In this document: in pieces, positions 3,036 to 31,505 of the stretch
How positions within the stretch are numbered: the stretch's first letter is position 1
Layout of the letters: each line of letters starts with the position of its first letter
DNA from: Nautiliaceae bacterium
Lineage (GTDB): Bacteria; Campylobacterota; Campylobacteria; Campylobacterales; Nautiliaceae
Direction of reading: 5' to 3'
Assembly: GCA_027008345.1 (NCBI GenBank)
Contig: JALTBU010000203.1
Span: 1 to 58,425 of the forward strand
Length of the DNA: 58,425 nt
The notes under the pieces: generated by a model
The model's database searches: none
Told to the model about the DNA's origin: nothing
The model's input: only the letters and a program-made list of their open reading frames with translations
Translations under genes and position numbers: made by a program

Positions 3036-3890
3036 TTGTTTGCCATTATAGGTCCTACTGCCAGTGGAAAGAGTGATTTAGCAATTAAATTAGCTGAAAT
3101 ATTAGGATACGAAATACTTTCACTAGATTCTTTAAGCATTTATAAAGAAATAGATATAGCCTCGGCAAAACCTTCTTATGAAGAATTAAACAAAGTAAAA
3201 CATTACGGTATAAATGAAATATATCCAAATGAAAAATTTGATGTTACTAAATTTATTGAAATTTACAAAAAAATACCCCATCAAAAAATAATTATTGTAG
3301 GAGGAACAAGTTTTTATTTAAAAGCAATGATTAATGGAATTTCTCAAATGCCTAAAATATCTGAAAATATTAAACAAAAGGCCAAAAGTTTTTCATATGA
3401 AAGATTAAAACATATTGACCCTGAATTTACTTCAAAAATTTCACCAAATGATACATACAGAGTAACAAAAGGAGCTGAAATATATTTTGCCACAGGATTA
3501 CCGCCAAGCAGATTTTTTCAATTAAATCCCCCTAAACCTGTTCTTCCTAAAATTCCGATTTTTGAAATAGATATTGACAGAAAAACTTTAAGACAAAGAA
3601 TTATTAAAAGAACAAAAAAAATGTTTGAAAATGGTCTTATAGATGAAGTTGCATATCTTGAAGCTAAATATAAAGACAGACGCCTTCCTGCTCTAAAAGC
3701 CATAGGCATTAAAGAAGTTCTTGATTATTTTAACGGTATATACAATAAAAAAGAGCTTTTTGAAAAAATAGTTACAAACACTGCAAGACTTGCAAAAAGA
3801 CAGCAGACATTTAACAAAACACAATTCAACACCATAAAAGCACCTCTTAAAAATCTTGAAGAAATTATCCTACAACAAATAAATTACTAA
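3036..3890 (+). CDS. miaA: tRNA dimethylallyltransferase
   Basis: 284 aa with a TTG start. It has the N-terminal P-loop IIGPTASGKSDLAIKLA followed by EILSLDSLSIYKEIDIASAKP, the typical MiaA opening. Confidence 0.93.
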   Translation: MFAIIGPTASGKSDLAIKLAEILGYEILSLDSLSIYKEIDIASAKPSYEELNKVKHYGINEIYPNEKFDVTKFIEIYKKIPHQKIIIVGGTSFYLKAMINGISQMPKISENIKQKAKSFSYERLKHIDPEFTSKISPNDTYRVTKGAEIYFATGLPPSRFFQLNPPKPVLPKIPIFEIDIDRKTLRQRIIKRTKKMFENGLIDEVAYLEAKYKDRRLPALKAIGIKEVLDYFNGIYNKKELFEKIVTNTARLAKRQQTFNKTQFNTIKAPLKNLEEIILQQINY

Positions 3891-3908
3891 GAAAACAAGC
3901 TCTTCATA

Positions 3909-3988
3909 TTCACTCATCTACCCATTGACATATTATTCCATCAACTCATCCACCCATCAACCCATTCACTCATCAACTCATCCGCCCA
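3909..3988. repeat. array of 10 in-phase degenerate 8-bp units (TYNAYYCA)
   Basis: Read directly: ttcactca tctaccca ttgacata ttattcca tcaactca tccaccca tcaaccca ttcactca tcaactca tccgccca. It fills the gap between the convergent stops of miaA and the TPR gene. The + strand here is almost G-free. Confidence 0.9.
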
Positions 3989-7595: not shown

Positions 7596-9115
7596 TACAT
7601 ACCTCCAAAAAAGCTAAATGCTTTATTTGCAATATCAAAAATTGGTTGCGGATTAACTCCGAAATAAACAATTAAGAATGAAAATACTGCCAAAGCAAAT
7701 TTTTCAGGGAAACTCATATGGAAATTAGCTTTTTTAACTATTTCACTCGGTTCACCGTGAATTGCTCTTCTAACCGCCCAAATAATATAACCGGCACTGA
7801 TAAATCCTGCAAGAGCAATTAAAGCAATCCACCAACCGAATGATTTAACTGCTGAAATAATAATAGTAAGTTCACCTACAAATCCCATAGTTCCAGGTAA
7901 ACCTAACGCAGCCATACCTGCTAAAATAAAAATTGTACTTGCATACGGAGCATATTTCATAATACCACCCATTTCATCCATATACCATGTATGGGTTTTA
8001 TGATGAAGCCATCCTGCAATTAAGAATAAAGGTGAAATTACAATTGCATGTCCTATCATTTCATAAAGAGCTGCGCTAAGCCCGTCATAACTCATAGTGG
8101 CAATTGCCACAACCACAAGACCCATATGTGAAATAGATGAATACGCAACCATTTTTTTAATGTGTCTTTCATATACAGCAAGAAGTCCTGCAAAGAATGT
8201 TGTTGCAAGACCAAGCACAACCATCCACATAGCAAATTTAGCAGTAGTAGATGGTAAAAGTTCAACAGTAAATCTTATAAGTCCATATGCACCCATTTTC
8301 AAAAGCACACCTGCTAATAAAACAGAAATGCTGCTTGGTGCCTGAACGTGTGCATCAGGAAGCCAAGTATGAAAAGGGAATGTAGGAAGTTTTGCTGCAA
8401 ATCCTAAAAACATTAACCACCAAATAAGTGCAGGTGTTGCAAGAGAAGCTTCTTTAATTAATGTAATATCCCAATAACCTGTTTGTTTAAATAATAAGAA
8501 AAATCCTACAAACATAAACATCGCAAAAACGTGTGTGTATAAGAAAAATTTAATTGCAGCATATACTCTACTTGGAAGTTTGATTTCAATATTAAATACT
8601 TTTTTAACTTCCTCACCTTCTGCACCCCAGTAACCAACAAGGAAAAGCATAGGAACAAGTGTAAGTTCCCAAAACATAAAAAACCATAATACATTTGTAG
8701 TCATAAATACACCAAAAATCGGTCCACTAAATAAAATCAAAAGACTAAAATAAGCAGCCTGATTTTTTTCTTCCCAAGATGTAAATACAACTAAAATCAA
8801 AAGCCCTGCTGTAAGCAAAAGCATTGCAACACTCAAAGCGTCTATTTGAAGTGTAAGACTAAATCCAAAAGCCGGTACGCTTAAAAATTCACCAAGTGGT
8901 AAAAAACCAGTTGATTTAATATATTGCAAAACTTCCGGTGCAAAAGCATAACTTTCCGGATGCATTATTTGGTTTAACCAATTTAGTGAAATTATAAAAA
9001 GTACTACAAACCATATAAGCGCCACATATTTAGTTATATGCTGTGCTCCTCTTGTCAAAAAATAGACAAGGGCCGAGAGAAAAATCGGCGCAAAAATAAT
9101 ATCAACCGCTACCAT
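7595..9115 (-). CDS. nuoM: complex I subunit M (antiporter-like)
   Basis: 506 aa. FHTWLPDAHVQAPSSISVLLAGVLLKMGAYG is the NuoM/ND4 signature stretch. Confidence 0.92.
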   Translation of the reverse strand: MVAVDIIFAPIFLSALVYFLTRGAQHITKYVALIWFVVLFIISLNWLNQIMHPESYAFAPEVLQYIKSTGFLPLGEFLSVPAFGFSLTLQIDALSVAMLLLTAGLLILVVFTSWEEKNQAAYFSLLILFSGPIFGVFMTTNVLWFFMFWELTLVPMLFLVGYWGAEGEEVKKVFNIEIKLPSRVYAAIKFFLYTHVFAMFMFVGFFLLFKQTGYWDITLIKEASLATPALIWWLMFLGFAAKLPTFPFHTWLPDAHVQAPSSISVLLAGVLLKMGAYGLIRFTVELLPSTTAKFAMWMVVLGLATTFFAGLLAVYERHIKKMVAYSSISHMGLVVVAIATMSYDGLSAALYEMIGHAIVISPLFLIAGWLHHKTHTWYMDEMGGIMKYAPYASTIFILAGMAALGLPGTMGFVGELTIIISAVKSFGWWIALIALAGFISAGYIIWAVRRAIHGEPSEIVKKANFHMSFPEKFALAVFSFLIVYFGVNPQPIFDIANKAFSFFGGM

Positions 9116-17639: not shown

Positions 17640-18293
17640 TTTTTATACTATCCGGATACTTCTGATACAGTTATATTAAGCGGAGAAGCACATAAATACC
17701 TTTTTAAGGTAAGAAGAATAAAAAAAGACGAAATTATAAAAATAAGAAATTTAAAAGACGATTATCTTTATCATTACAAAATCAAAGAAATAAATAAAAA
17801 AGAAGCGGTTTTAATATTAGACAAAAACGAATTCAAACCTCAAAAACCCTCAAAATTTTTTCATCTTGCATGGTGCATGATAGATCCTAAAAACATAGAA
17901 AAAACACTTCCAACATTAAATGAAATGGGGGTTGGTAAAATAAGTTTTATATATTGCGATTTTTCTCAAAAAAATTTCAAATTAAAACTTGATAGACTTA
18001 AAAAAATTCTTATTAATTCAAACCAACAATGCGGAAGAAGTGATATAATGGAAATTGAAATAATAGATTCAAGTAAAGAATTTTTCGAAAAATATCCACA
18101 ATTTACGGCACTTGATTTTGACGGAGAAAAAATAAAATGCGACAAAAGATATTCAAATCCTTTTTTAATTGGACCGGAAGGAGGATTCAGTGAAAGCGAA
18201 AGAAAATATTTCATACAAAAAATAAAATTTGACAGTTTCATTTTAAAAAGTGAAAGCGCAGCATGTGCCATCAGTGCCAAAATTTTATTATAA
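17634..18293 (+). CDS. rsmE: 16S rRNA (uracil1498-N3)-methyltransferase
   Basis: 219 aa. The N-terminal PUA-like opening is GEAHKYLFKVRRIK and the C-terminal SPOUT motif is LIGPEGGFSESE. Confidence 0.85.
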   Translation: MQFLYYPDTSDTVILSGEAHKYLFKVRRIKKDEIIKIRNLKDDYLYHYKIKEINKKEAVLILDKNEFKPQKPSKFFHLAWCMIDPKNIEKTLPTLNEMGVGKISFIYCDFSQKNFKLKLDRLKKILINSNQQCGRSDIMEIEIIDSSKEFFEKYPQFTALDFDGEKIKCDKRYSNPFLIGPEGGFSESERKYFIQKIKFDSFILKSESAACAISAKILL

Positions 18294-18294
18294 T
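18289..18294 (+). promoter_or_regulatory. possible -10 hexamer for the downstream seven-gene operon
   Basis: An exact TATAAT lies 26 nt upstream of the TTG start at 18321, with AAAGGCGG (Shine-Dalgarno-like) in between. TATAAT is common by chance in DNA this A+T-rich. Confidence 0.2.
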
Positions 18295-18320
18295 ACGCAA
18301 AATATTATCAAAGGCGGTCA

Positions 18321-18956
18321 TTGAAAATAGCTTTAATTGAAGATGAGTCTCTCATAAGAGAAACCTTACATGAACTTCTTCAAACCGAATATGAAACAGA
18401 AAGCTTTGAAAATATAAAAGAATTCTTAAAAACCGACAAAAAATTTGACATAATTGTCGGAGATATAAACCTGCCTGATGGTAATTTATTGAATGAACTG
18501 AGAAAATTCCCACATTTAATCGAAAACTCATTACTTATTATTATCTCAGCAGATGGAAATATTGAAAACATTAAAAAATCATTTGATTTAGGTGCTGTAG
18601 ATTTTATAAAAAAACCATTTGAATTTGAAGAACTCTTACTTAGAATCGAAAGATTTATAAAAAAGAATAAAAATATAAAATTAAGTGATAATATATTTTA
18701 TTCACCCTCAAAAAAAGTTTTAATTATTGATAATGAAACAGTAAACCTTACATTTAAAGAATCTGCGTTTTTAGAACTTTTAATAGAAAAAAACGGTGCG
18801 TATGCCACATTCGAAGAAATCGAAAATACAGTATGGGGAGAGCCTATAATGGCTAATACATTAGCCGCTCTTGTTAAAAGATTAAGAAAAAAACTTAAAA
18901 AAGATTTAATAGAATCCAAGCGATATTTAGGATATCGGTTAATAAAATCATCTTAA
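18321..18956 (+). CDS. OmpR/PhoB-type response regulator
   Basis: 211 aa with a TTG start. Receiver residues are present (IEDES, DIIVGDINLPDGN, IIISA, DFIKKPF). The C-terminal winged helix ends in RYLGYRLI. Confidence 0.9.
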   Translation: MKIALIEDESLIRETLHELLQTEYETESFENIKEFLKTDKKFDIIVGDINLPDGNLLNELRKFPHLIENSLLIIISADGNIENIKKSFDLGAVDFIKKPFEFEELLLRIERFIKKNKNIKLSDNIFYSPSKKVLIIDNETVNLTFKESAFLELLIEKNGAYATFEEIENTVWGEPIMANTLAALVKRLRKKLKKDLIESKRYLGYRLIKSS

Positions 18957-19086
18957 TATCATATTTTATATTTACAATTGCATAAAAAACAATAAAGGTT
19001 AAACAATTTTTAAAAAGAAGACTCAAAATCTGGCAAAAATTTTTTTCCATGATCTTAAAAATAAACTTTTAGGAATAAAATTAATA

Positions 19087-20823
19087 TTGAGTCTTGCGAA
19101 AAAAAAACCTGAAAAAACAAACGAAATCTTTGACAAAGTACATAAAAACATAGATGAGAGTATTGATTTAATAAAAGATTATCTGAGTTTAGAACAATAT
19201 AAAAAAACAAAATTTTTAAAGCATTCGAGTTTTTGTTTAAACTCTTTAATTGAAGAAATTTTACATGAACTTGAAAATGAAATAAATAAAAAAAATATTT
19301 CAGTCCATTATAGTGTTACCGAAGAAAATTTAATTATAAAAACAAACAAAGAATGGCTTAAAAAAGCACTTTTTAACATAATACACAATGCCGTAAAATA
19401 CAATAAACAAAATGGTCATCTTTTTATAAATATTGAATATACAAAAAATGGCTATCTTCTAATAGTTAAAGATACAGGCATAGGAATAAGTAAAAAAGAC
19501 AAAGAAAAAATTTTCGAAAGATATTATACCAAGGATAAAGATGGCAGCGGAATCGGGCTCAATTTTTCAAAGACGGTAATAGAATCCCTTGGAGGCAAAA
19601 TAAAATTTGATTCAGTCTTCAATAAAGGCACGGTATTTTATATATATCTTCCAAAAATAAGTAAAAAAATTAAGCTGAAAATGTTAGCTTCAGCATTAGC
19701 AGGATTTTTTATTGTCTCTTTTATAACAATAGATTATTTTTATTGTTTAATTCCTCAAAAAGTGCAAATAAAAATTTCCGGAAATATTAAAATAATAAAA
19801 TTTGAAAACGGGATTGTTGCAAAAGCCAATAAAAATGACGAAATCAAAATAATAGCTTATAAAAACATATTTAATACTAAAACAAGAAACAAATTAATCT
19901 TACAAAAATCAGATATTGAAATAGCTACAAATGGCAATAAGATTAAAGTTATAACTCCAAATACTTCTTTTAGCAATTTAGGAACAAAGTTTGAAACAGT
20001 GGCAAAAGATAAAACTGCAATCAGTGTATTTGACGGAAAAATAAAAAATAAAAGAACAGTAGTAAATACAGATGAAGGGCTTATAGTTTCAAAAACCATA
20101 CAAAAAGTTCCTTTGCCCCAAAAAATATCTTATCTAAAAATACAAAACAAACCAAAAACTATAATAAGATGGTCAAGTCCTTATAAATATTTTAAAATTT
20201 TAATATCAAAAGATCGATCTTTTTCAAATCCTCCTATTTATGGCTTTTATACTGCTAACAAAATAATTTCTCCTAGTTTAAACGATGGAATATGGTATAT
20301 CAATATCAAAGCAAAACATAACGACCTTTATTCAATACCAGTTGTTAAAAAATTTATATCTTTAAATAATTATTATAAAGCTTTAAATTATTATAAAAAC
20401 AATAATATTCAAGAAGCTCTTAAATATATCGAAAAAAGCGTCTCAACAATAAACCATATATCTCCGTTGCCATATTATTTATATGCTAAAATACTTTTTA
20501 AATTAAAAAATTACAAAAAGTCATTAAAATATATAAAAGAAGGAGAAAAAGTGGGGCAAAAAGAAAAAATAAAATTATTAAAAGCGAAAATATTTTATTT
20601 AAAAGGAAAATATAAAAAAGTTATAGAAATTCTAAAAAACCCTTCAAATGAAGAAGAAAAATTACTTGTGGCAAAAGCATTTTATAAATTGGGTAAATAT
20701 AAAATTGCCAACAAATATTTATACAGGATACTTGAAATAAATCCTGATAATAAAGAAGCAAAAAAATTTTTAACATTTCCAAAAGGTTTAAAAAAGCAAG
20801 GATTTTCAAATGCATTTAATTGA
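19087..20823 (+). CDS. atypical sensor histidine kinase: N-terminal kinase core, one TM helix, extracytoplasmic FecR-like plus TPR region
   Basis: The HATPase_c boxes are present: N box NIIHNAVKYNKQNG, G1 VKDTGIGIS, F box IFERYY, G2 GSGIGLNFS. A TM helix follows (LASALAGFFIVSFITIDYFYCLI), then a FecR-like stretch (TPNTSFSNLGTKFETVAKDKTAISVFDGKIK), then TPR-like repeats. The H-box FFHDLKNKL lies in frame upstream of the called start, so the true 5' end is probably near 19003-19030 (see findings). Confidence 0.8.
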   Translation: MSLAKKKPEKTNEIFDKVHKNIDESIDLIKDYLSLEQYKKTKFLKHSSFCLNSLIEEILHELENEINKKNISVHYSVTEENLIIKTNKEWLKKALFNIIHNAVKYNKQNGHLFINIEYTKNGYLLIVKDTGIGISKKDKEKIFERYYTKDKDGSGIGLNFSKTVIESLGGKIKFDSVFNKGTVFYIYLPKISKKIKLKMLASALAGFFIVSFITIDYFYCLIPQKVQIKISGNIKIIKFENGIVAKANKNDEIKIIAYKNIFNTKTRNKLILQKSDIEIATNGNKIKVITPNTSFSNLGTKFETVAKDKTAISVFDGKIKNKRTVVNTDEGLIVSKTIQKVPLPQKISYLKIQNKPKTIIRWSSPYKYFKILISKDRSFSNPPIYGFYTANKIISPSLNDGIWYINIKAKHNDLYSIPVVKKFISLNNYYKALNYYKNNNIQEALKYIEKSVSTINHISPLPYYLYAKILFKLKNYKKSLKYIKEGEKVGQKEKIKLLKAKIFYLKGKYKKVIEILKNPSNEEEKLLVAKAFYKLGKYKIANKYLYRILEINPDNKEAKKFLTFPKGLKKQGFSNAFN

Positions 20824-22126
20824 TATTATAAATAAATCGGATATCGCTTTAATAGAAGGTGCAAGTAAACTTGGAAAATTAACATTCGCACTTTATGCAT
20901 ATTCTCAAAACGAAAAAATAGAAAAAGTAACAATTTTATCCTCAATCCAGAAAAAATTGATGCAAAAAAGAATCCACTCAATTCAAAATTTAAATGATGA
21001 AAATATTAATAAGTTATTGAAAAATATTGAATTTTTATGCTTGAAAGAAAATTGGCTTGAAATAAAATCTTCTTATGGATTTGATTTCATTTATGAAGAC
21101 ATTGAAAGAATAGTACAAAATACTAAATGTGATGCAATAATACTTCACAGGCCTGATTTGATGTTTAGTAATAGCGAATACGATCTTGCAAGATTGTTTC
21201 TTGAAAAATTTATTGAAATTGCAAACAATTATGGGAAAAAAACATTTATTACAAGTGATATGAATCATTTTATCACAGAATTTTTAGAAAATTACACAGA
21301 TATTTCTATGCAGATGAAAAAAAAAGACAATATAAGAAAAATAATAATAAAACATTCTTTGTATCCCGTAACATCAAATTTATACGATTTCATTTTTAAA
21401 AACAACAAATTTGAACTTATAAATGAAAAAGAAAATTCTAATATTGATATTGTAACATCCAAAAATGATATGTTAGTTATTTCACAAGATGAAAGATTCA
21501 AAAAAATACATTCCTATATTTTTAGTAAATATTTTAATATAGAATTTGCATCAAACCTCAGCGAGGTTATAAAAAAAATAGAAAACAAACCTGAAATAAT
21601 AATTTATCAAGACCAAGAAACGATTCCTGAATTTGATATCTGTAATACAGTAAAAAATATATCACCTCATTCAAATATTATTTTTATACTAAATAAAGAC
21701 TATATAAGAGCAGAAGATAAAATGGATGCTATACAATCAAAATGTTATGAAGTTTTTAGCAGAAACTTTAATCTTGAAGAATATATTTTAACCATAGAAA
21801 AAATAAATCAAAATTTTTTCTATTCAAATAAACTCAAACTTTTACCTCCCCAAAAAATTGCAACTAATTATGAAAATTTCTGTAAAGCCATTAAATCACT
21901 TTATAATGAAAGAATATTTTTCTCAGTAGTAGAATATTCTGAATTTAAAGATGAAATAATAAGCAGACTAAGAACCCATGATATTATTTATAAAAAAGAC
22001 GAGCTTATTTATCTTTGTCTTGTAAATGTAACCAAAGAGATGTTTGAAAGTAATTTAAAAGAAAAATTAGAATTAACAGATAAATACCATTTTATTGAAG
22101 CCATAGAGTGGGACGGTAAATGCTAA
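20810..22126 (+). CDS. RecA/KaiC-like (degenerate P-loop) plus receiver-like plus GGDEF-remnant protein; BcsE-like architecture (hypothesis)
   Basis: 438 aa. Residues 17-24 read GASKLGKL, which is GxxxxGK followed by Leu rather than Ser/Thr. Residues 221-330 or so have a receiver-like alternation (MLVISQDE...PEIIIYQDQE...IIFILNKD...EVFSRNF). The C-terminus reads FFSVVEYSEFKDEIISRLRTHDIIYKKDELIYLCLV. It overlaps both neighbouring genes. Confidence 0.6.
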   Translation: MHLIDIINKSDIALIEGASKLGKLTFALYAYSQNEKIEKVTILSSIQKKLMQKRIHSIQNLNDENINKLLKNIEFLCLKENWLEIKSSYGFDFIYEDIERIVQNTKCDAIILHRPDLMFSNSEYDLARLFLEKFIEIANNYGKKTFITSDMNHFITEFLENYTDISMQMKKKDNIRKIIIKHSLYPVTSNLYDFIFKNNKFELINEKENSNIDIVTSKNDMLVISQDERFKKIHSYIFSKYFNIEFASNLSEVIKKIENKPEIIIYQDQETIPEFDICNTVKNISPHSNIIFILNKDYIRAEDKMDAIQSKCYEVFSRNFNLEEYILTIEKINQNFFYSNKLKLLPPQKIATNYENFCKAIKSLYNERIFFSVVEYSEFKDEIISRLRTHDIIYKKDELIYLCLVNVTKEMFESNLKEKLELTDKYHFIEAIEWDGKC

Positions 22127-25100
22127 AAAAAGCATTGATTTTTTTTATGTTTTCAATATTAATTTTAGCCGATACATTGGAAATTGATGCTAACCAACTT
22201 GAAAAAGAGATATTAAAAAACCCAAATGATATATTAAACCGTTTAATACTTGCAAAATATTATGAAAATCACAAAAATTATAAAAAAGCTTTAATTTTTA
22301 TAAACCAGATTTTGGAAAAAGATCCAAAAAATAAAAAGGCATTGTTATTAAAAAAAGAGATATTATCTTTCCAAAATACACAAAAACTTAATGAAAAATA
22401 CGGAAATCTCGATAAATATATAAACAATCTTTATGAAAAAGAAAAATATAAAGAAATACTTTCTTTTTATACAAAGTATAAACCTTTATTAAAACCAAAA
22501 ACCCTTATTAAAATAGCAAGAATCGCAATGTGGGAAGGAGATTACGATCTTTCTTTAAAGATATTAAATTCTTTTAAAGAAAATAATTTGGATGTATTGG
22601 AAATAAAAGCATATGATTATTTCTTCAAAGGCGATTATATTAAAGCAAACAGATTATTTAAAATCCTTTATAATGCAACCGGACAAAAAGATTATGGAAT
22701 AAAACTTATTGAGACATATATTCGGCTCGGCGATGCATTAAGTGCAAAAAAAGTGCTTTATTCTTTGAAATACAAACTTTCAAAACAAGAATACCAAAAA
22801 TATTTTAATTTAATTGAAAAAAAACTTTTTTCTTACATAAATATATTAAAAAAGCAATATACAAAAAATCCTACATATAAAAATTTAAAAAAATTTATCA
22901 TTGCATTATATGATTTACAACCTGATGAAGCAATAGAAATTGTAAAAAATTATCTCAAAAACAACCCTGAAAATTTCAAAGCCAAAATTTTACTGGCTAA
23001 ATTATATATATGGAAAGGAGAAACACAAAAAGCAACAAAAATTTTGGATACTTTTACAGATACAGACAATTATCAGGCAAAACTGCTTTATGGAAAAATT
23101 CTTGCTTGGAATGGAATGTATAAAAAAGCCAAAATATTTTTAATGGATGTATATCAAAATGGAAATACAAAACAAAAATATGAAGCATTAAAAATGCTCG
23201 GATTTATAGAAATGTGGCAAAATCATAAAGAAAATGCAAAAAAAATTTTTGAAAAACTTTATAAAATAAATCCAAAAGATGAAGAAGTAAAAGAAGCACT
23301 TATGATTTTAAAAGGAAAAATAAAACCACTTATTATCAAATATGAAAAACTTCTAAAAAAATATCCCAATAATATGGATTATGTACTGAAATTAGCTGAT
23401 TTATATTATATGCTCCCAAACTATGAAAAAGCGGCAAAATATTATGAAATCTATCTTCAACACAATCCTGATAAAATAGAAATATATAAAACGCTTGGAG
23501 ATATTTATCTTGAATTAAAAAAATATTATAAAGGTTTTTCAGACTGGGAATATTATGCAGCTATAAAAAACACCCCTGACGCATATCTTGAATTAGCAAA
23601 AAGATATTACTGGAATGGTTTTATGAAAGAATCATTAGATATTTTAAATAAACTCATAAATAAATATCCAAATTACAAACAGGCAATAGAACTAAAAGCT
23701 AAAATTTTAAAAATAAATCCAAGATATCTTAATTATAATTATGAAACGGCTATTGAAAAATATTTCAACAACAGAGCCCAAAAACTATTAATTTATGGAG
23801 ACAGAAGTTATTTTGCAGGTTTTTATAAGACTGCCCAAAATTATTATAAAGATTATCTTTTTATAAATCCAGATGACGCAAATGTAAGGGAAAAATATGC
23901 TTATACACTTGAATTTACCGGTAATTATTCGACTGCGGCAGGAGAGTTTTATAATCTGTTTTGGTATAAAAAAAACCCAATTATAGAATATCATTATGCA
24001 TATTGTTTGCAAAAATCAGGGAAACTAAAAGAAGCTAAAAAAATATATGAAAAATTACTTAACGAAGTACCAAAACCACTTCCGGAAAAATTAAAAAAAT
24101 TTATTTATAACTGGAAAAAAGCATGGGAAAGTATGAATTTTGAAAAATATGCTTCATTTTATGACAACAAAATAAAAAACAACATTTATTGGAGATTAAA
24201 AAAACAAAATATTTTTAAAAAAGCAGGTTTTATAAGCGTAGGGATATATAACCCTATTCTACTTCAAAAAAAAAGAAATATTTATAAAATAAAATTTTAT
24301 CAGGTATATGCATCTCAAATCAAAAAAGATAAAGGATATAAAACTTTATGGATAAAATGCAATAAAGACAAATGCCTCATAATAAAAGAAAAATGGTCTC
24401 CAGGTAAATTCAGACCAGATAATCCTGAAAACTCTCTTCTTATCTTGATAAGAGAAAATTTACAAGAAATTGACACTCCAAAGACTATTATAAAAAACAA
24501 TGAAAATATTACCTATGAAAATATACCGTCAAAAAAACAAAATAAAAACAGCATTCAAGACGAAAACAACCTTATACAGCCAAATGACTTTATGCCTTTG
24601 AATAAAATTTTAAAAAAAAAAGAAACTAAAATAACACTTGCTGAAAAAAACATTACAAGAGAAACAAACACTTCTTTAATCAAAGAAAATTTAAATATTG
24701 AAAAATTTAAGATAGTAAAAGTTACAAAAAAAAACGCAATAACCAAAGAAATTAAAAAAAGACCACCTAATTATTTTTTAATTTCATTATATCATTTTCA
24801 TGATAATCAAAAAACTCACTATAATCACATCGAGGCAAAATATTTAAAAAATTTTGGAAGTTTTGACGCCGGCATATTTGTGCGATTTTTTGAAATAAAA
24901 CAAGATTTTAAAAAAGATTCAGGAAACATAACAGCCGGTATTATTAGATACAGAGGATATGAAATAACGGCAGGTATCGATAATGCAAAAAAAAGTGATT
25001 TGTATTTAAATATAAAATCTGAATATAAACACCATAATATAAATATTTTATATGAAAACCTTGTATATTCAAGAAAAACTATATGCTCTTTAATTCATAA

Positions 25101-25575
25101 AAGATTAAAACTTGAAGCAAGCAGATACAAACAGCTTAACAACATAAGAGGTCTTTGGTATTCTATCGCAGGAGAATATATTGATGATGGAAATTTAGTT
25201 TTTACTCCCCAAATTGATTATGATTTTTATAATAATAAAATATTTAATTCGCCATATGCGTTTTTTTTCTCAGGATGGTATCAGTTTAATTCAAAACAGA
25301 CAAATTGTTACTATTCACCTGATAAAACTGATTCTAATCTTGTAGGTATTAAATTTTATCCTAAAAACAAATTTGCAGATATAATGTTTAAAGGAGGGAT
25401 TGGTTATAGCATTTGGGATAAAGCATTTTTATATAAGTTAGGATTTAATGTAACCAAAAATATAAAATTATTCAATATAAATGCAAAGTGTGAATATGCA
25501 AACACTTCACCTGTTAACGCTCCTAATAATTATAAAAGTTATGAGTGTTATTTAAATATGGGAAAAACATGGTAA
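22120..25575 (+). CDS. outer-membrane exopolysaccharide export protein: periplasmic TPR scaffold plus C-terminal beta-barrel (PgaA/BcsC/PelB-like architecture)
   Basis: 1151 aa with a signal peptide (MLKKALIFFMFSILILA). About 650 aa of TPR repeats come first, then a small globular insert and a low-complexity Asn/Lys linker. The last 270 aa or so have alternating-hydrophobic strands and end in ...YLNMGKTW, a terminal aromatic as in OM barrels. Confidence 0.75.
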   Translation: MLKKALIFFMFSILILADTLEIDANQLEKEILKNPNDILNRLILAKYYENHKNYKKALIFINQILEKDPKNKKALLLKKEILSFQNTQKLNEKYGNLDKYINNLYEKEKYKEILSFYTKYKPLLKPKTLIKIARIAMWEGDYDLSLKILNSFKENNLDVLEIKAYDYFFKGDYIKANRLFKILYNATGQKDYGIKLIETYIRLGDALSAKKVLYSLKYKLSKQEYQKYFNLIEKKLFSYINILKKQYTKNPTYKNLKKFIIALYDLQPDEAIEIVKNYLKNNPENFKAKILLAKLYIWKGETQKATKILDTFTDTDNYQAKLLYGKILAWNGMYKKAKIFLMDVYQNGNTKQKYEALKMLGFIEMWQNHKENAKKIFEKLYKINPKDEEVKEALMILKGKIKPLIIKYEKLLKKYPNNMDYVLKLADLYYMLPNYEKAAKYYEIYLQHNPDKIEIYKTLGDIYLELKKYYKGFSDWEYYAAIKNTPDAYLELAKRYYWNGFMKESLDILNKLINKYPNYKQAIELKAKILKINPRYLNYNYETAIEKYFNNRAQKLLIYGDRSYFAGFYKTAQNYYKDYLFINPDDANVREKYAYTLEFTGNYSTAAGEFYNLFWYKKNPIIEYHYAYCLQKSGKLKEAKKIYEKLLNEVPKPLPEKLKKFIYNWKKAWESMNFEKYASFYDNKIKNNIYWRLKKQNIFKKAGFISVGIYNPILLQKKRNIYKIKFYQVYASQIKKDKGYKTLWIKCNKDKCLIIKEKWSPGKFRPDNPENSLLILIRENLQEIDTPKTIIKNNENITYENIPSKKQNKNSIQDENNLIQPNDFMPLNKILKKKETKITLAEKNITRETNTSLIKENLNIEKFKIVKVTKKNAITKEIKKRPPNYFLISLYHFHDNQKTHYNHIEAKYLKNFGSFDAGIFVRFFEIKQDFKKDSGNITAGIIRYRGYEITAGIDNAKKSDLYLNIKSEYKHHNINILYENLVYSRKTICSLIHKRLKLEASRYKQLNNIRGLWYSIAGEYIDDGNLVFTPQIDYDFYNNKIFNSPYAFFFSGWYQFNSKQTNCYYSPDKTDSNLVGIKFYPKNKFADIMFKGGIGYSIWDKAFLYKLGFNVTKNIKLFNINAKCEYANTSPVNAPNNYKSYECYLNMGKTW

Positions 25576-26873
25576 AAACATTTTTTATAATTTTTTTGTC
25601 AATACTTATTATTTTGATACTTACTTTTTTATTAACCAGTTATTATCAGACTTTTTACAGTTTAAACAATATAATTATAAAATTAGGTATAGGAATAATA
25701 CTTGTATTTATTACTCTAGTAGTCCTTAGATATATGCTTTTATTATTTTTTTCAATTCTTAAAGTAATTATGAAAACAGCTGATGAAAAAAATAAATCTC
25801 TTGCAAAAAGTAATAAAAAAGTTTCAGTTATAATACCTGCTTATAATGAAGAAAAAGTAATTGAACAATCTATGAAAGGAATTATTAATCAGACATATCA
25901 AAATTTAGAATTAATAGTTGTAGATGACGGAAGTACTGACAACACATCATTAAGAGCACAAAAATTTTCTCATCTTCCATTTGTAAAAGTTTTAAAAAAA
26001 TCAAACAGTGGTAAAGCAAATGCAATAAATTATGGAATTGAACACTCAAATGGTGAGCTTATAATGGTAGTTGATGCAGATTCAAAACTTAAAGAAAATG
26101 CAGTTGAATTAATGGCAAAATATTTTGAAGATCCTGATATAGCTGCTGTTGCAGGCTCAGTATATGTCAGTAATCAAGTAAATATACTTACTAAACTTCA
26201 AGCCCTTGAATATATTGAGGGTCTAAATATGGTAAGAAATGGGCAAGCATTTTTAAAACTTGTAAATATTATACCAGGACCTATTGGTATGTTTAGAAAA
26301 CACGCTTTATATGAAGTAGGATTGTATGATGATGATACTTTTGCAGAAGATTGTGATGTGACTCTTAAATTAATTACTCATGGCTATAAAATAGACTTTG
26401 AATCAGAAGCTGTAGCAAAAACAGAAGCACCTGAAAATATTTTTGATTTAATAAAACAAAGATACAGATGGACAAGAGGTATTTTACAAGCTATAAAAAA
26501 ACATAGATCTCTTTTATGGAATTTCAAAAGTAACCCTTCCGCTTCATTTACAATGTGGTATATGCTTTTTGAAGCAATATTGTGGCCTTTTATGGACTTT
26601 TGGGTAAATATGTTTATTATATATCTTGCTATAACAACAGGTGTTTCTCTTCTTATTTTTTATTGGTGGAGCCTTTTTACAATACTTGACGTCGCAGGGG
26701 CACTTTATTGTATACTTATAACTAATGAAAGTTTATCAATAGTATTTTATGCTGTTTTTTACAGATTATTCTTTATTCTTTTTATAAATTTGATTAAAAT
26801 ATTATCAACAATAGAAGAATGGTTTGGGATAGAAATGAACTGGGGTAAACTTGAAAGAAAAGGAAGAATATGA
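25545..26873 (+). CDS. processive family-2 glycosyltransferase/synthase (PgaC/IcaA-like)
   Basis: 442 aa. It has an N-terminal TM region, VSVIIPAYNEEKVIEQS, LIVVDDGSTDNT, VVDADS and the QRYRWTRG (QxxRW) motif, followed by C-terminal TM helices. An alternative start is ATG at 25569 (MVKTFF...). Confidence 0.88.
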   Translation: MLFKYGKNMVKTFFIIFLSILIILILTFLLTSYYQTFYSLNNIIIKLGIGIILVFITLVVLRYMLLLFFSILKVIMKTADEKNKSLAKSNKKVSVIIPAYNEEKVIEQSMKGIINQTYQNLELIVVDDGSTDNTSLRAQKFSHLPFVKVLKKSNSGKANAINYGIEHSNGELIMVVDADSKLKENAVELMAKYFEDPDIAAVAGSVYVSNQVNILTKLQALEYIEGLNMVRNGQAFLKLVNIIPGPIGMFRKHALYEVGLYDDDTFAEDCDVTLKLITHGYKIDFESEAVAKTEAPENIFDLIKQRYRWTRGILQAIKKHRSLLWNFKSNPSASFTMWYMLFEAILWPFMDFWVNMFIIYLAITTGVSLLIFYWWSLFTILDVAGALYCILITNESLSIVFYAVFYRLFFILFINLIKILSTIEEWFGIEMNWGKLERKGRI

Positions 26874-27052
26874 ACCTGCTTGCATTTTTGGCGCTGCTGA
26901 TACTTATAATAACAATAATCACTTTAGTATTCGGTATAATAGCTTATTTTTTATATAAAACAAGGGAAAAAACCAAAAAAAATAGAAATAAAAAACTTAT
27001 TTATGAAGATGTATTAAATGAAGTCGGCGGCAATTATATATTTTTTGAATAG
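26870..27052 (+). CDS. small single-pass membrane protein (possible PgaD/IcaD-like synthase partner)
   Basis: 60 aa. There is an ATGA stop/start overlap with the synthase gene. It has one TM helix (LLAFLALLILIITIITLVFGIIAYFLY) and a basic tail (KTREKTKKNRNKK). The functional analogy comes from position only. Confidence 0.5.
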   Translation: MNLLAFLALLILIITIITLVFGIIAYFLYKTREKTKKNRNKKLIYEDVLNEVGGNYIFFE

Positions 27053-28841
27053 ATTAAAAACTTTAACAGTTTTTATTTTCATAATACTTTTAACTTTTTT
27101 AAGCGGATATATTATTTATCAGCTATTACCTAATGTAAATGGTAATTATATTGCTTTAAATAATCCTAATTCTGTCAAGATAAAAATACTTCTCTCTGAT
27201 ACAACAATAGATATGTTAAGTAATAATGGTTTAAATCCGGATAAATATAAAAATGATATACAAGACCTTGCTTTAAAATTAAAAAAAAATGGAATTTCAT
27301 ATAAAATTATTTCTGACAAAGAACTTCCTTTTTTAAATAAAAATGATATTCTTTTTGCTCCTGATACTTATGCAGTTTCTCAATTCGGCAAAAAAAATAT
27401 AAAAAAATTTTTAAGCAAAGGCGGAACATTAATTTTTAATTTCAGATTTGGTTACTTTAACGAAAACAACCGATTTTTTAACGCCAAAACAATAGAAGAA
27501 ATTACAGGCCTTAAAAAATCAATAGATTCAATACCAAAAAAAGAAGCTACTTTTTTTATTCAAAAAAGAATTTCTCCTCTTAATATGTCCAAAGTTCCTT
27601 TTAGACAGGATTTAGTTGTATATGACCCTTTACCAATATTTCATTCAGATTATATTCCAGATATTGTTTTAACTAACTGGTCAATTACAACACCTCCGAT
27701 GGTCAAGAAAAAATATTTATCTATTTATGACGACGGTATTGCTTGGCACGGATTTTATGGTAAAGGCAAATGGTTTTATTTCTCTTTTCCAACATATGTT
27801 TTTTTAGATATGAAAGACAAAGAATTTAAGAAAATTATAAATAATATAATATTATTTTCAAAAAGCCTTATTTCAATTTCATCTTATCCCTTTATTAATA
27901 AAAAAAATGGAATTTTCATTTCAGAGGATACGGAATATAAATATCCTTACGGATACAATTTTGCCACACTTGCTAAAAAACATAAAATTGACGTCACCCT
28001 TTTTGCGGTAGCAAAACTTGCCAAAAAATATGAAAACATAACAAAAGCAATAGCCAAATTTCAAAACTGTGAAATAGGCTCACATAGCTATTCTCATATC
28101 AAAATAATGGGTGCCCCTATTGATGTGGAAAAAAGAGAAATAATATATTCAAAACAACTGCTTGAAAAAATCACAGGCAGAAAAATTTACGGATTCAGAC
28201 CTCCAAGAGAAGAAATTGATGATACAATGGAAAAACTTATTAAACAAGCAGGATATATTTATGTAATGGAAAAATCCAAGCCTTTTTTACTGCCTATGAA
28301 AAGAAATTTCGGAATTATTACAATTCCAAGACTTGGAACAGATGATTATACTTATCTTATAGATACGGATTTCAATAAATCCCAAATCCTAAAACACATA
28401 ATACTTGAAACCAATTTTTTAACTGCATTAAATGGAACATATACATTAAGTGTTCATACACATTTATTATCATATAAATCAAATATCACCGTTTTAGATG
28501 CATATTTTACCTATTTAAATCATCATTTGAATTTAAATCCTTTAAAAGGTAAAAATATAGCGCTAAAATCGATACAGGCACAAAATATATATTTTAATTA
28601 CACAAGTACAAATAATATCATTTCACTTAATATAACAAATAATAATACACAAATGCTCAAAAATATTTCTTTTAGACTCTACAATCCAAATATTAAAATA
28701 ACCGATATCATACCTGAAATAAGCACTTACAAAATAAAAATTCTTTTACATAATAAAAGTAGAAGATATTATGATTTGCAAATTAGTCATATTCCGCCTA
28801 AAACAACTGTTACAATTTTTATAAAATACAAAAAATTATAA
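27018..28841 (+). CDS. membrane-anchored polysaccharide deacetylase (CE4/NodB domain) with an unknown N-terminal domain and a C-terminal beta-rich domain
   Basis: 607 aa with a TM anchor ([19 protein letters not shown]). The NodB motifs are [18 protein letters not shown] (HxxxH) and GFRPPREE (RPP). An alternative TTG start at 27045 would shorten the overlap with the 60-aa ORF. Confidence 0.82.
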
Positions 28842-29417
28842 AAGTTTTATAATTTTTTGGGCCAAATCAAGTGCTTTTACTCTGTGTGAGATCTTATGTT
28901 TTACAGATTCATCAAGTTCGCCCAATGTTTTATTATAATTTTTTGGAACAAACATAGGATCATATCCAAATCCTTTATCACCTCTTGCTTCATCAATAAC
29001 ATCACCATACATAAATCCATGTGTTGTAAAAACACCATAAGGAGTGGCAATGGCTATTGCCGCTGTATAAAATGCAGGTGTTTTTTTGATATTTCTTTTT
29101 TTGAGTTCATTTATAAGTTTATTTAGATTATCTTTATCACTTGCATTTTCTCCTGCATATCTTGCAGAAAATATTCCAGGCTCATTATTAAGCGCAGGAA
29201 CACTTATACCGCTGTCATCAGCCAATACAATATACTCAGGAAGTTTTTCATAAATGGCTTTTGCTTTAATAATAGCATTTTCTTTAAAAGTAGCACCGTT
29301 TTCTTCAATTTCAAAAGGTTCTATTAAATCAGTATAAGGGATTACATCATAATTTTTAAGTATATTTTTAATTTCTTTTATTTTACCTTTATTTCCACTT
29401 GCGACAACTATTTGCAT
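28836..29417 (-). CDS. rdgB: dITP/XTP pyrophosphatase (non-canonical purine NTP pyrophosphatase)
   Basis: 193 aa. [36 protein letters not shown] and GFGYDPMF are HAM1/RdgB motifs. Confidence 0.92.
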
Positions 29418-29426
29418 ATTAACTCC

Positions 29427-31505
29427 TTATTCTATATTTGCTTTTGGAGGTGAAAAATAATATCCCTGAAAATAATCAACACCTAAATTTTTAAGTTTTT
29501 CAAATATTTCTTCATTTTCTACAAATTCTGCAATAGTACTTATTTTCATTTCTTTTGCAAAAGAAATAATCGTTTTAACTATTATTTCACTGTTTTTATC
29601 GATTAAAATATTTTTAATTAAACTTCCGTCAATTTTTACCCCATCGGGATTAAGTTTTATCAAATAATCAAAATTTGAATATCCGCTTCCAAAATCGTCT
29701 ATGTATATCAACGCTCCTAAATCTTTTATACTTTTAAGAAAACTTTTAACAATTTCATTTTCACCCACATCTTCACTTTCAACAATTTCAAACGTTAAAA
29801 GTTTTTTATTTGTAATAGATGAAATTTTTTCTAAAATAAATGTTCTCATATTCTCATCATCCATATCTTCTAGTGTTAAATTTATAGATATAGCTACATT
29901 TTTTTCTTTAATTTTCTCAATAACTTTACTGATAACTCTTTTTGTTATTTCAAGATAAAGCCTTGATTTTTTTGCAACTTCCAAAAAGAAAAAAGGTGAA
30001 ATTATATTTCCGTTTTCATCAATCAATCTTACAAGAGCTTCATATTTGATAATTTTCCCGTCCCTATCTACAATAGGTTGAAAAAAAGGAACTATTTTAT
30101 CATTTTCAAGAGCTTTTTTTATTTTTCCAAGCCATTTTAAATGCTCTTTATATCTGTTTAAATCTTTTATTTCTTGACCAAAAACTATATCTTTTTTAAT
30201 CTCTTTTGCAAAATCTAATGCAATATCAGCTCTTATAAAATCTTTTTTTTCAAAACTTACTCCTGCTCGGAATCTTACTATAATTTCGTTACCATTTATT
30301 TGATATGGCTTTTCAAGCTCATTTAAAATATCTTTTATAATTTCTTGGAGTTTTGATTCTTTCACATCAGAAAATAAAAGGCCAAATTCATCTATATCGA
30401 TATGAAAAAGTTTAAAATTATATTTCTTTTTTAAATTTTTTAATCTTTGAGCTACATTAATAATAAGCTGGTTTCCAGTATCTACTCCAAAATAAAAATT
30501 AATATCTTTAAATTTATCTATATTTATCAGTACAATAATATACTTTTTATCTTTTGTTGCATCCACAAATTTGTTTCTATTAGGCAACTCTGTCAAAGGA
30601 TAAAAGAAGTTTTTTTTGTAAACTTCTCCTTTGTATTTTTTTAAAGTAAAAAATGTTTTATTAATCTGTCGTTTAAGATATTCAAATTCCGCAAAATTCA
30701 TTTTTTCTTTTAAAACAGGAAAATTTCCTTTAACAGTTGTTTTAAAATGCCTAAGTATTTTTGAAATATCTTTTTTAATACTTGCGTGCATTTTATAAAA
30801 TATAAAAAGTCCTATTAAAAAAAACAAACCTCCAATACTTAAAATAATAAGAAATATCTTATTAACATTGTCAATAACATTTTGATAAGGAAATACAATA
30901 GAAATAATACCCCTCACATCTCCTAAATGATAATTAAATGCCTTATTTCCATATTCTTTTACAATCAGATTATATATATTTGCAGGAACATCTTTATAAG
31001 GTATTCCATGACATCTAAGACAAGATTTTTCAATCACAAGTTTTCTTGCATAAAATACATGTCTTTGATTAAAATATTTATCAGCTGAATGAATACTATA
31101 ATACTCATTCTTATTTTTGTGTTTTTTAAAAAAATTTATTGCTTCTAATTCAGTATTATTAGGCTTGTCTAAAGGATTCCTATATCTATCAGAAGTCTGT
31201 TTGACATAATAACCATTTTCTCGCAAGAGTTTTGCAACCTGATTTGTCACATAAGCAGGAGTTATGGCAAAAGGAGATAAATTTTTATCTTTTATTTGTA
31301 CTTTTGGAGCAATTAATGAAAGATAATGTCTGTAATAAATAAGAGTTTGTGCTTCTAAACGAGCCTGTTGAATTTTCTCTCTTATAACAATCTTTGTAAT
31401 AAAAAAATATAAAAACCCTAATACAAAAACTGCGAGTATAAAGCCAATTAAAGTCGTTTTTAAAAACTCTTTTTTTAAGTTGGTCAATTTAAAATCTTTT
31501 TGCAT
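29427..31505 (-). CDS. c-di-GMP phosphodiesterase: periplasmic haem-c (DUF3365-like) sensor, degenerate GGDEF domain, intact EAL domain
   Basis: 692 aa. Two TM helices flank a domain with CLRCH (CxxCH) in a DUF3365-like context (SDRYRNPLDKPNNTELEAINFF...GDVRGIISIVFP). The GGDEF position reads DIDEF. The EAL motifs YEALVRL, DDFGSGYSNF, KIDGSLIKN and FQGYYFSPP are present. Confidence 0.85.
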   Translation of the reverse strand: MQKDFKLTNLKKEFLKTTLIGFILAVFVLGFLYFFITKIVIREKIQQARLEAQTLIYYRHYLSLIAPKVQIKDKNLSPFAITPAYVTNQVAKLLRENGYYVKQTSDRYRNPLDKPNNTELEAINFFKKHKNKNEYYSIHSADKYFNQRHVFYARKLVIEKSCLRCHGIPYKDVPANIYNLIVKEYGNKAFNYHLGDVRGIISIVFPYQNVIDNVNKIFLIILSIGGLFFLIGLFIFYKMHASIKKDISKILRHFKTTVKGNFPVLKEKMNFAEFEYLKRQINKTFFTLKKYKGEVYKKNFFYPLTELPNRNKFVDATKDKKYIIVLINIDKFKDINFYFGVDTGNQLIINVAQRLKNLKKKYNFKLFHIDIDEFGLLFSDVKESKLQEIIKDILNELEKPYQINGNEIIVRFRAGVSFEKKDFIRADIALDFAKEIKKDIVFGQEIKDLNRYKEHLKWLGKIKKALENDKIVPFFQPIVDRDGKIIKYEALVRLIDENGNIISPFFFLEVAKKSRLYLEITKRVISKVIEKIKEKNVAISINLTLEDMDDENMRTFILEKISSITNKKLLTFEIVESEDVGENEIVKSFLKSIKDLGALIYIDDFGSGYSNFDYLIKLNPDGVKIDGSLIKNILIDKNSEIIVKTIISFAKEMKISTIAEFVENEEIFEKLKNLGVDYFQGYYFSPPKANIE

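Follow-up and report, generated by a model that had tools for sequence, protein, structure and literature searches.

Most of the knowledge of how cyclic dimeric GMP (c-di-GMP) switches biofilm polymers comes from five or six systems, those for cellulose, poly-N-acetylglucosamine (PNAG), Pel, alginate, Pss, and Nfr. In the PNAG systems, Pga and Ica, the small membrane proteins PgaD and IcaD have two transmembrane (TM) helices. In the Pel system, a degenerate GGDEF I-site in PelD binds c-di-GMP and switches on a synthase without a PilZ domain; PelD is membrane anchored and carries a GAF domain, the synthase PelF belongs to glycosyltransferase family 4, and PelA unites a hydrolase with a deacetylase. 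The Pss system of Listeria monocytogenes yields a β-1,4-linked N-acetylmannosamine (ManNAc) chain decorated with galactose, and its receptor, PssE, is without the RecA-like and degenerate receiver (REC*) domains of the cellulose-associated protein BcsE. BcsE itself, which combines a degenerate RecA-like N-terminal domain with REC* and a degenerate GGDEF domain (GGDEF*), is to our knowledge known to date only from cellulose secretion in enterobacteria. Here, we analyze a 58,425-nucleotide stretch of DNA from a Nautiliaceae bacterium (GenBank assembly GCA_027008345.1, contig JALTBU010000203.1, positions 1 to 58,425; hereafter, the window), in which seven open reading frames (ORFs; g1 to g7) on the + strand at positions 18321 to 28841 bring together a PgaC-like synthase and what appears to be a remote relative of BcsE.

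The seven ORFs follow one another at distances of +49, −14, −7, −31, −4, and −35 nt, so that neighbors abut or overlap. They encode an OmpR-type response regulator, a histidine kinase of inverted layout, a BcsE-like tripartite protein, a secreted tetratricopeptide repeat (TPR) protein of 1,151 residues, a glycosyltransferase family 2 (GT2) synthase, a 60-residue membrane peptide, and a carbohydrate esterase family 4 (CE4) deacetylase. We consider it rather probable that this operon directs the synthase-dependent production and secretion of a polysaccharide of an uncharacterized type, a process that would be gated by c-di-GMP through g3. The original prediction, drawn from the DNA alone, had proposed a synthase-dependent exopolysaccharide operon of seven tightly packed + strand genes with a two-component system inside it. 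The seven ORFs lie at its coordinates and are tightly packed, the two-component genes do lie within the operon at this locus, and the parts list is that of a synthase-dependent system. Judged from sequence comparisons, the cassette is Pga/Ica-like at the synthase and deacetylase steps, Bcs/Pss/Pel-like in its proposed receptor, and a member of none of these systems.

In the literature, we found no description of this system, of a BcsE relative outside cellulose operons, or of synthase-dependent systems in Campylobacterota, and the operon goes unmentioned in the papers on the Nautilia genome and transcriptome. A 2020 operon survey noted that the pga genes of environmental bacteria can be unusually organized, with neither pgaB nor pgaD detected (PMC7112194), which may be a glimpse of this cassette. 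Vent Nautiliales are described as encoding many GGDEF and EAL proteins (PMC2628731).

A conserved five-gene core

Searches seeded on g3 and on the CE4 protein led us to examine 12 further loci, all of which (12/12) carry a five-gene core composed of a g3-like gene and genes for a TPR/outer-membrane protein, a GT2, a peptide of 54 to 71 residues, and a CE4 protein. All 13 loci (window included) but L013, in which the g4 ortholog comes ahead of g3, have these genes in the order g3-g4-g5-g6-g7. Because the same order recurs in 12 further loci with G+C contents of 25 to 54%, the gene arrangement is not due to chance. The carriers include the cultured Nautilia lithotrophica (L014), Lebetimonas natsushimae (L015), and Nitratiruptor sp. 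SB155-2, as well as metagenome-assembled genomes (MAGs) of Gammaproteobacteria such as Pontibacterium; the loci nearest to that of the window come from vent MAGs labeled Nautiliaceae. The original prediction had called for a survey of co-occurrence across Campylobacterota. The core does recur there, and it also reaches Gammaproteobacteria, in which g1 and g2 are missing.

Nine loci carry an eighth gene 3′ of the CE4 gene, encoding a secreted protein of about 325 residues with invariant NPEFN and FQEMRA motifs (for example, L014, 18016 to 18993; L015, 17920 to 18921; and L003, 18101 to 19096). The protein matched nothing in Pfam or the PDB, and the two motifs suggest that it is possibly a new clan GH-A hydrolase. 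The gene is missing in the window, L001, and L002, in all of which the CE4 gene runs into the end of rdgB (28836 to 28841 in the window). N. lithotrophica, which shares the flanks of the window, has the eighth gene between the CE4 gene and rdgB, and it was therefore lost in the lineage of the window. In L013 (54% G+C), a glycoside hydrolase family 8 (GH8) gene at 7055 to 8275 overlaps the end of the CE4 gene and replaces the gene for the ∼325-residue protein.

Synthase, peptide, deacetylase, and presumed exporter

g5 (25545 to 26873, + strand) encodes a membrane-integrated GT2 that matches Pfam Glycos_transf_2 (E value, 2.9e-36) and carries DDGSTD (residues 127 to 132), DAD (residues 177 to 179), AED (residues 267 to 269), and QRYRW (residues 305 to 309) motifs between two N-terminal and three C-terminal TM helices; its true start may be the ATG at 25569. 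The protein thus combines the D,D,D,QxxRW signature with a TM channel of its own, as do inner-membrane processive GT2 enzymes, and structures of hyaluronan and cellulose synthases align to it along the TM region. The best NCBIfam family is PgaC_IcaA (TIGR03937; E value, 3.4e-57; 194 bits versus a cutoff of 422.3), followed by NodC (116 bits). The same ranking was obtained for five cassette orthologs of g5, with 187 to 206 bits for PgaC/IcaA, and NodC scores range from 106 to 133 bits across the cassette GT2s. Pairwise comparison with Escherichia coli PgaC, a protein of the same length, gave 32% identity over 311 residues (E value, 1e-47). A membrane GT2 with DxD and QxxRW motifs had been predicted, a reading that would fail if the enzyme clustered with nonprocessive glycosyltransferases; the motifs and the 2 + 3 TM helices are present, and the enzyme falls with PgaC/IcaA as its best family and with the hyaluronan and cellulose synthases.

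The small gene g6 (26870 to 27052, + strand) encodes the predicted 60-residue single-pass peptide, which consists of a TM helix (residues 3 to 27), a basic stretch, and a conserved C-terminal Y-[IV]-F-F-E tail. Orthologs of 54 to 71 residues, in which the TM and tail motifs are nearly identical, are encoded at this position in 10 loci, and the orthologous ORF of L008 is frameshifted. The peptide has no similarity to BcsF or PgaD, and we presume that it serves as synthase partner and receptor tether.

g7 (27018 to 28841, + strand) encodes a membrane-anchored, presumably periplasmic polysaccharide de-N-acetylase, as predicted, with an N-terminal TM helix and a CE4 domain (Pfam Polysacc_deac_1; E value, 2.1e-16). 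In the AlphaFold2 (AF2) model (mean predicted local distance difference test [pLDDT] score, 91.9), the TM segment (residues 2 to 36) is followed by an alpha/beta domain (residues 54 to 290), a CE4 (beta/alpha)7 barrel (residues 298 to 505), and a beta-sandwich (residues 524 to 606). All five CE4 motifs, MT1 to MT5, are found (S-E303-D304, H356xxxH360, R394-P-P, D442-D443, and H480), and among 50 homologs D304, H356, H360, R394, D442, D443, and H480 are invariant and E303 is nearly so. The operon therefore encodes a polymer-modifying enzyme of the periplasmic kind. It follows the logic of BcsG, also a membrane-anchored periplasmic modifier, but is a CE4 deacetylase and not a phosphoethanolamine transferase. 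Human NDST1 is the only PDB match that spans both the N-terminal and the catalytic domains of g7 (557 columns). NDST1 carries a sulfotransferase, and Agd3, the GAG deacetylase of Aspergillus, which acts on a long matrix polysaccharide, belongs to carbohydrate esterase family 18. The N-terminal domain and deacetylase of NDST1 are related to Agd3, and the N-terminal domain lengthens the substrate groove (PMC10864358). The N-terminal half of both proteins shows the same Rossmann-like alpha/beta domain packed on a metal-dependent (beta/alpha)7 deacetylase, although both are eukaryotic and share only ∼13% identity with g7, which matches the Pfam CE4 model.

These two enzymes bear on the explanation that the locus makes no exopolysaccharide at all, the GT2 and CE4 proteins instead modifying peptidoglycan, lipopolysaccharide, or glycoprotein and g4 being an unrelated TPR protein. 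The closest CE4 structures, by sequence and by fold, do include peptidoglycan deacetylases. However, the QxxRW motif and channel-forming multi-TM layout of g5 are typical of processive synthases, and the synthase, the peptide, the anchored CE4 protein, and a TPR protein of >1,000 residues with an outer-membrane-protein-like C terminus strictly co-occur across phyla and G+C contents. We regard this explanation as very improbable.

The presumed route out of the cell is g4 (22120 to 25575, + strand), a secreted scaffold or export protein of 1,151 residues comprising a signal peptide, TPRs (residues ∼23 to 660), an NTF2-like Cds6_C domain (residues 658 to 758; E value, 1.9e-9), a low-complexity linker, and a C-terminal domain of ∼270 residues. 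The TPR region gives weak matches to the PgaA and BcsC TPR models of NCBIfam. The C-terminal domain is conserved in 13 orthologs, rich in aromatic residues, and always ends in W (GKTW in g4); its sequence follows an alternating, amphipathic pattern and is devoid of TM helices, and only the L008 ortholog matches Pfam PgaA_barrel (E value, 1e-5, below the cutoff). We presume from this pattern that the domain is an outer-membrane beta-barrel. The TPR half of the predicted TPR plus beta-barrel protein is thus substantiated and the barrel is putative, and the Cds6_C domain had been overlooked. In Nitratiruptor (L007, 5389 to 8543), the g4 ortholog is split into a 748-residue TPR/NTF2 ORF and a 294-residue ORF for the C-terminal domain. 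The split might be genuine, giving two separate proteins, or might reflect a frameshift or a misassembly.

With Pga and Ica, the cassette has in common a membrane GT2 from the PgaC/IcaA lineage, a small membrane protein as partner, a CE4 de-N-acetylase, and a putative TPR exporter of the Gram-negative kind. The gene order differs, and in agreement with the original prediction, which had set the locus apart from pgaABCD and icaADBC in both order and parts, g6, g7, and the C terminus of g4 show no detectable homology to PgaD, PgaB, and the PgaA barrel, respectively, which leaves g5 as the sole homolog of a Pga component. No PgaC/IcaA equivalog, PgaD/IcaD-type partner, or PgaB/IcaB-type deacetylase was recognized among the seven proteins, and c-di-GMP sensing would fall to a separate cytosolic BcsE-like protein rather than to the PgaC-PgaD interface. 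One could still view the locus as a known PNAG system that has merely diverged, with rearranged genes and mechanistically nothing new, given the equal length and 32% identity of g5 and PgaC and the presence of a TPR protein, a CE4 protein, and a small membrane protein. We find this quite improbable: the comparisons of g6 with PgaD, of g7 with PgaB, and of the g4 C terminus with the PgaA barrel gave no significant similarity, g6 has one TM helix in place of two, g7 is built of an alpha/beta N-terminal domain, CE4, and beta-sandwich and lacks the glycoside hydrolase family 153 (GH153) domain of PgaB, the GT2s fall under the equivalog cutoff in 6/6 cases, and the extra conserved BcsE-like gene occurs in neither Pga nor Ica.

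As to the product, we infer a chain of N-acetylhexosamine that is probably partly de-N-acetylated, with PNAG as the leading guess. The predicted PNAG-like, partially deacetylated polymer keeps its parts list, and the identification with PNAG is tempered by a g5 score of less than half the PgaC/IcaA cutoff and by a g7 that is not near PgaB or IcaB. A β-1,4-linked hexosamine/N-acetylhexosamine chain is a serious rival because of the NodC and chitin synthase affinities of the GT2s and the GH8 gene in L013. On this account, the architecture would be the same and the product a partly deacetylated β-1,4-linked N-acetylhexosamine, either chitin/chitosan-like or poly-ManNAc as in Listeria Pss and E. 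coli Nfr. GH8 enzymes are active on β-1,4 glycans, chitosan and the Pss chain of Listeria among them, and the GH8 gene of L013 overlaps the end of the CE4 gene, a counterpart to the hydrolase association of the Pss system. For every cassette GT2, NodC ranks second among the families, Chitin_synth_2 is matched by the GT2 orthologs of L011 and L013, genes for a PgaB-type GH153 or a dispersin-like enzyme are lacking, and the authors of the Listeria study noted that GT2 similarity is no predictor of the product (PMC4125290). Against the β-1,4 linkage, PgaC/IcaA is always the top family (∼190 to 205 bits versus ∼106 to 133 bits for NodC), GH8 occurs in one locus only, a bcs cluster adjoins L011 and L012, so that GH8 genes circulate nearby, and the cassette is without the UDP-ManNAc epimerase gene that poly-ManNAc would call for. 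Overall, we judge a β-1,4 product to be a substantial minority possibility.

A remote BcsE relative as candidate c-di-GMP receptor

The product of g3 (20810 to 22126, + strand) matched no model in Pfam or NCBIfam, and a phmmer search of the PDB returned one weak receiver match only. The AF2 model built from 22 homologs (pLDDT, 87) consists of RecA-like, REC-like, and GGDEF-like parts, and in Foldseek its four closest PDB structures are full-length BcsE chains of E. coli, taken from the Bcs macrocomplex (E values, 2.7e-15 to 2.9e-14; 477 to 493 aligned columns), which rank above KaiC, a match to the RecA-like part. The model and the Foldseek matches agree with the predicted description of a RecA-like/REC-like/GGDEF-remnant protein and identify the arrangement as the tripartite fold of BcsE.

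The g3 family is small. An exhaustive profile search recovered 80 cluster representatives at an E value of <1e-10 among 1.84 billion, and outside the family it reached only generic receiver domains. In an alignment of 51 members (mean column identity, 29%), R388 and D391 are the sole invariant columns, and R300 and D303 are among the few that are nearly invariant. Comparison of this alignment with a BcsE alignment built from E. coli and seven plasmid-borne genes (hhalign) gave a probability of 68.6% and an E value of 4.6e-5 over 343 collinear columns; against the single E. coli BcsE sequence, the similarity was not significant (E values, 0.61 and 0.13). The aligned columns pair R300-A-E-D303 in REC* (21707 to 21718, + strand) with R306ATD of BcsE (I-site II) and R388-T-H-D391 in the degenerate GGDEF domain (21971 to 22012, + strand, including five further residues and DELIY) with R415TGD (I-site I), so that the RxxD motifs of both BcsE I-sites, whose roles have been described (PMC7439463, PMC7840130), are found in g3. 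DELIY sits where a cyclase would have GG(D/E)EF, five residues after R388xxD391. The same spacing of RxxD before a degenerate motif occurs in the proven receptor PssE, which is likewise encoded in its operon and activates a GT2 (PMC4125290); the Listeria system is Gram-positive and has no outer-membrane exporter. The REC* domain of g3 is without the conserved phospho-acceptor Asp after beta3 in the family alignment, and the N-terminal domain retains a family-wide GxxKxGKLT motif (GASKLGKLT, 20858 to 20884) that is Walker-A-like, with Leu before Thr.

By sequence profile and structural model, we place g3 as a remote homolog of BcsE and not as a member of its family: curated BcsE/GIL models in Pfam and NCBIfam do not recognize it, and a Pfam scan of the 51 family members found no BcsE-named model, with KaiC matched in 9/51. 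The fold and both conserved I-site RxxD motifs therefore point to g3 as the likely, candidate c-di-GMP receptor of the system. The original prediction had noted the lack of a PilZ or PgaD-type receptor. A Pfam scan indeed found no PilZ domain; the further implication that the system has no receptor does not hold in view of the BcsE architecture of g3 with both RxxD motifs. The proposal resembles PelD in the use of a degenerate GGDEF I-site with a PilZ-less synthase. A stand-alone relative of g3 with REC* and GGDEF* and without the RecA-like domain (288 residues; E value to the family profile, 1.5e-30) is encoded in a Campylobacterales MAG (L005, 4741 to 5607), surrounded by unrelated housekeeping genes.

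The parallel with BcsEFG of E. coli extends beyond the three-part fold and the two I-sites, as the cassette likewise has a single-pass peptide of ∼60 residues that is BcsF-like in size and topology. In contrast, its synthase is PgaC-like and without PilZ, g3 matches no Pfam model and keeps its P-loop-like motif, and g6 has no sequence similarity to BcsF. The window cassette contains no bcs genes by Pfam search, BcsB, BcsQ, BcsR, and BcsZ all being missing, so the partnership of BcsE with BcsA(PilZ), BcsQ/BcsR, and BcsF has no counterpart there. Clusters of bcs genes adjoin only L011 and L012. In L011 (13418 to 21839; 36% G+C), the cassette directly adjoins part of a canonical cellulose operon, with bcsA (including PilZ), bcsB, the GH8 gene bcsZ, bcsC, and bcsQ, and in L012 (1 to 4071; 36% G+C) only bcsC and bcsQ are visible beside it at the contig edge. 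The presence of a BcsE-like gene with bcsQ neighbors in these two loci bears on the origin of enterobacterial BcsE.

We propose that g5 and g6 would polymerize a UDP-activated N-acetylhexosamine (N-acetylglucosamine most likely) and thread the chain across the inner membrane. In the periplasm, g7 would strip part of the N-acetyl groups, with its alpha/beta domain extending the substrate groove as in Agd3 and NDST1, and g4, through its TPR, NTF2-like, and putative barrel parts, would lead the polymer out via the outer membrane. Activity would be gated posttranslationally by g3, in which an intercalated c-di-GMP dimer would sit between the RxxD of REC* and that of GGDEF*, and the c-di-GMP-loaded protein would dock on the complex of synthase and peptide. 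In this scheme, the genes, domains, motifs, folds, and syntenic order are observed; the substrate, linkage, c-di-GMP binding, protein contacts (of g3 with g6 and g5, and of the kinase sensor with the envelope or g4), barrel, and kinase signal are postulated.

A different role for g3 would be that of a nucleotide-binding scaffold, ATPase, or pseudo-response regulator linking the synthase either with the two-component system or with assembly, its RxxD motifs being structural. The retained Walker-A-like GxxKxGKLT and the KaiC matches of some family members fit such a role, one member is named “response regulator” by NCBI, the receptor assignment draws on fold and motifs, and BcsE has assembly roles that are independent of c-di-GMP (PMC7439463). 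However, a phospho-acceptor Asp is not conserved in REC*, cassettes without regulator or kinase retain g3, which hence is not a two-component accessory, and the two RxxD motifs, the most conserved positions of the family, coincide in the alignment with residues of BcsE proven to contact c-di-GMP. We therefore hold this alternative to be unlikely and retain g3 as the candidate receptor.

Several observations weigh against a c-di-GMP-gated synthase-dependent system as outlined here. For g3, the TM-scores (template modeling scores) of Foldseek against BcsE are low (0.28 to 0.30), with the domains arranged differently, the hhalign probability reaches only 69% while no Pfam model matches, and the GxxKxGKLT motif of the N-terminal domain is not aligned to BcsE and is unlike BcsE as described, which makes another role possible. 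The BcsE partners BcsQ and BcsR are absent, and its mode of action is not directly transferable. g5 is homologous to PgaC/IcaA but falls outside the equivalog, at less than half its cutoff, and other chemistries of the polymer are hinted at by the GH8 gene in L013 and by a polysaccharide lyase family 7 (PL7) gene in L007; the latter (Alginate_lyase2; 3318 to 4049) lies just upstream of the BcsE-like gene of Nitratiruptor. For g7, MT1 reads E-D rather than the usual D-D, with E303 as the presumed base, the nearest Foldseek matches are generic CE4 proteins (3rxz, PuuE-type, HP0310, and ArnD), PgaB and IcaB are not in the top 50 fold matches, and comparison with PgaB revealed no sequence similarity. 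The profile of the g4 C terminus gave 0 matches in the PDB, hhalign against PgaA aligned a 13-residue motif only, and a hidden Markov model of 13 sequences did not score the E. coli PgaA barrel above 2000 shuffles. Finally, the lineage of the window is without the eighth gene that most relatives have kept.

Clade-specific regulators, flanking genes, and wider significance

Among the loci examined, the two regulatory genes precede the cassette only in those of Nautiliales and related Campylobacterota. The “unusual regulatory front end” of the original prediction is thus real at this locus and is not a defining feature of the system, being a clade-specific addition to a more widespread core cassette. 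g1 (18321 to 18956, + strand) combines a receiver domain (Pfam Response_reg; E value, 2.9e-16), whose presumed phospho-Asp lies within GDINLPD (residues 47 to 53), with a winged helix (Trans_reg_C; E value, 1.3e-13), in keeping with the predicted OmpR-type regulator.

The histidine kinase gene g2 (19006 to 20823, + strand) had been listed from a TTG at 19087, an ORF without a phospho-acceptor box; FFHDLKN lies in frame upstream of it. The upstream stop is at ∼19000, with no ATG, GTG, or TTG between it and the H box. Because orthologs begin with ATG or GTG at the codon equivalent to ATT 19006 (ATT also in L001 and L002), ortholog comparison places the true start at this conserved noncanonical ATT, which restores the phospho-His box. 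Extended to 19006, the protein gains a HisKA match in addition to HATPase_c, and its profile (positions 6 to 221) matches the complete HK853 core of dimerization/phosphotransfer and catalytic domains (E value, 4e-31). With its H box (FFHDLKN, residues 13 to 19) followed by HNAVKYN, DTGIGI, and GSGIGL, it supplies the H, N, G1, and G2 boxes of a classical two-component system, for which g1 provides the receiver and DNA-binding domains. The kinase core is N-terminal, followed by one TM helix (residues 222 to 245) and a periplasmic part of ∼355 residues with FecR-like and TPR sequences, so the predicted C-terminal extramembrane sensor stands and the TTG start, which missed the phospho-His box, does not. 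The FecR-like domain was matched in 11/11 orthologs, and the sensor part has only 16 homologs among 5.8 billion proteins, all with the same architecture. Public gene calls for g2 in this clade (P0290 to P0299, 500 to 585 residues) start downstream and are without the phospho-acceptor histidine, and in L003 (6760 to 7998) a gene for an OmpA-family outer-membrane protein is inserted between the regulator and kinase genes. In Nautiliales, g1 and g2 would add transcriptional control, with g2 perhaps monitoring the condition of the envelope or the export apparatus. The inverted kinase and the conserved AUU start are small curiosities for two-component and annotation specialists.

The flanks of the operon are housekeeping genes, with rsmE upstream and rdgB (28836 to 29417, − strand), an RND (resistance-nodulation-division) efflux pump, bipA, and flagellar hook genes downstream. 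The cassette is the main + strand block of the window, nearly all other large genes lying on the − strand, and the cassette region (18001 to 28000) has G+C fractions of 0.23 to 0.27, compared with 0.26 to 0.35 for most of the window. A promoter/terminator scan of this AT-rich DNA was uninformative (92 sites versus 91 expected), and searches of the window and of the DNA preceding g1 detected no member of any Rfam family, c-di-GMP riboswitches included.

Beyond rdgB lies a convergent gene (29427 to 31505, − strand), in the position and on the strand predicted for a GGDEF*-EAL phosphodiesterase. It encodes a periplasmic Tll0287-like domain with CLRCH (CxxCH, a heme c motif) at residue 162, DIDEF in place of GGDEF at residue 370, and an intact EAL at residue 489, which suggests a redox- or gas-sensing c-di-GMP hydrolase. 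The gene adjoins the cassette in L001 and L002, both of which share the flanks of the window, and is absent from the visible downstream flanks of L003, N. lithotrophica, and L. natsushimae. We rejected a functional tie to the operon, as the adjacency is limited to the closest relatives.

More speculatively, the cassette may represent a further, unnamed class of synthase-dependent exopolysaccharide systems of vent Campylobacterota and marine Gammaproteobacteria, in which a BcsE-type dual-I-site protein, tethered through the 60-residue peptide, would alone switch a PgaC-like synthase without PilZ in response to c-di-GMP; in Nautiliales, the kinase might read the export apparatus, and the polymer could be a secreted chitosan-like chain. 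We offer this extended picture tentatively. If it is true, BcsE would be an ancient and portable receptor module and not a cellulose-specific invention of enterobacteria. The role of enterobacterial BcsE is hard to separate from that of the BcsA PilZ domain, and the cassette would offer a natural setting with a BcsE-type protein as the only visible receptor. It would also add another synthase-dependent system, with its own combination of parts, to those already described. We know of no exopolysaccharide pathway described for Nautiliales or Nitratiruptor, which are abundant colonizers of hydrothermal vents; the cassette points to the matrix machinery of both groups, and cultured carriers exist.

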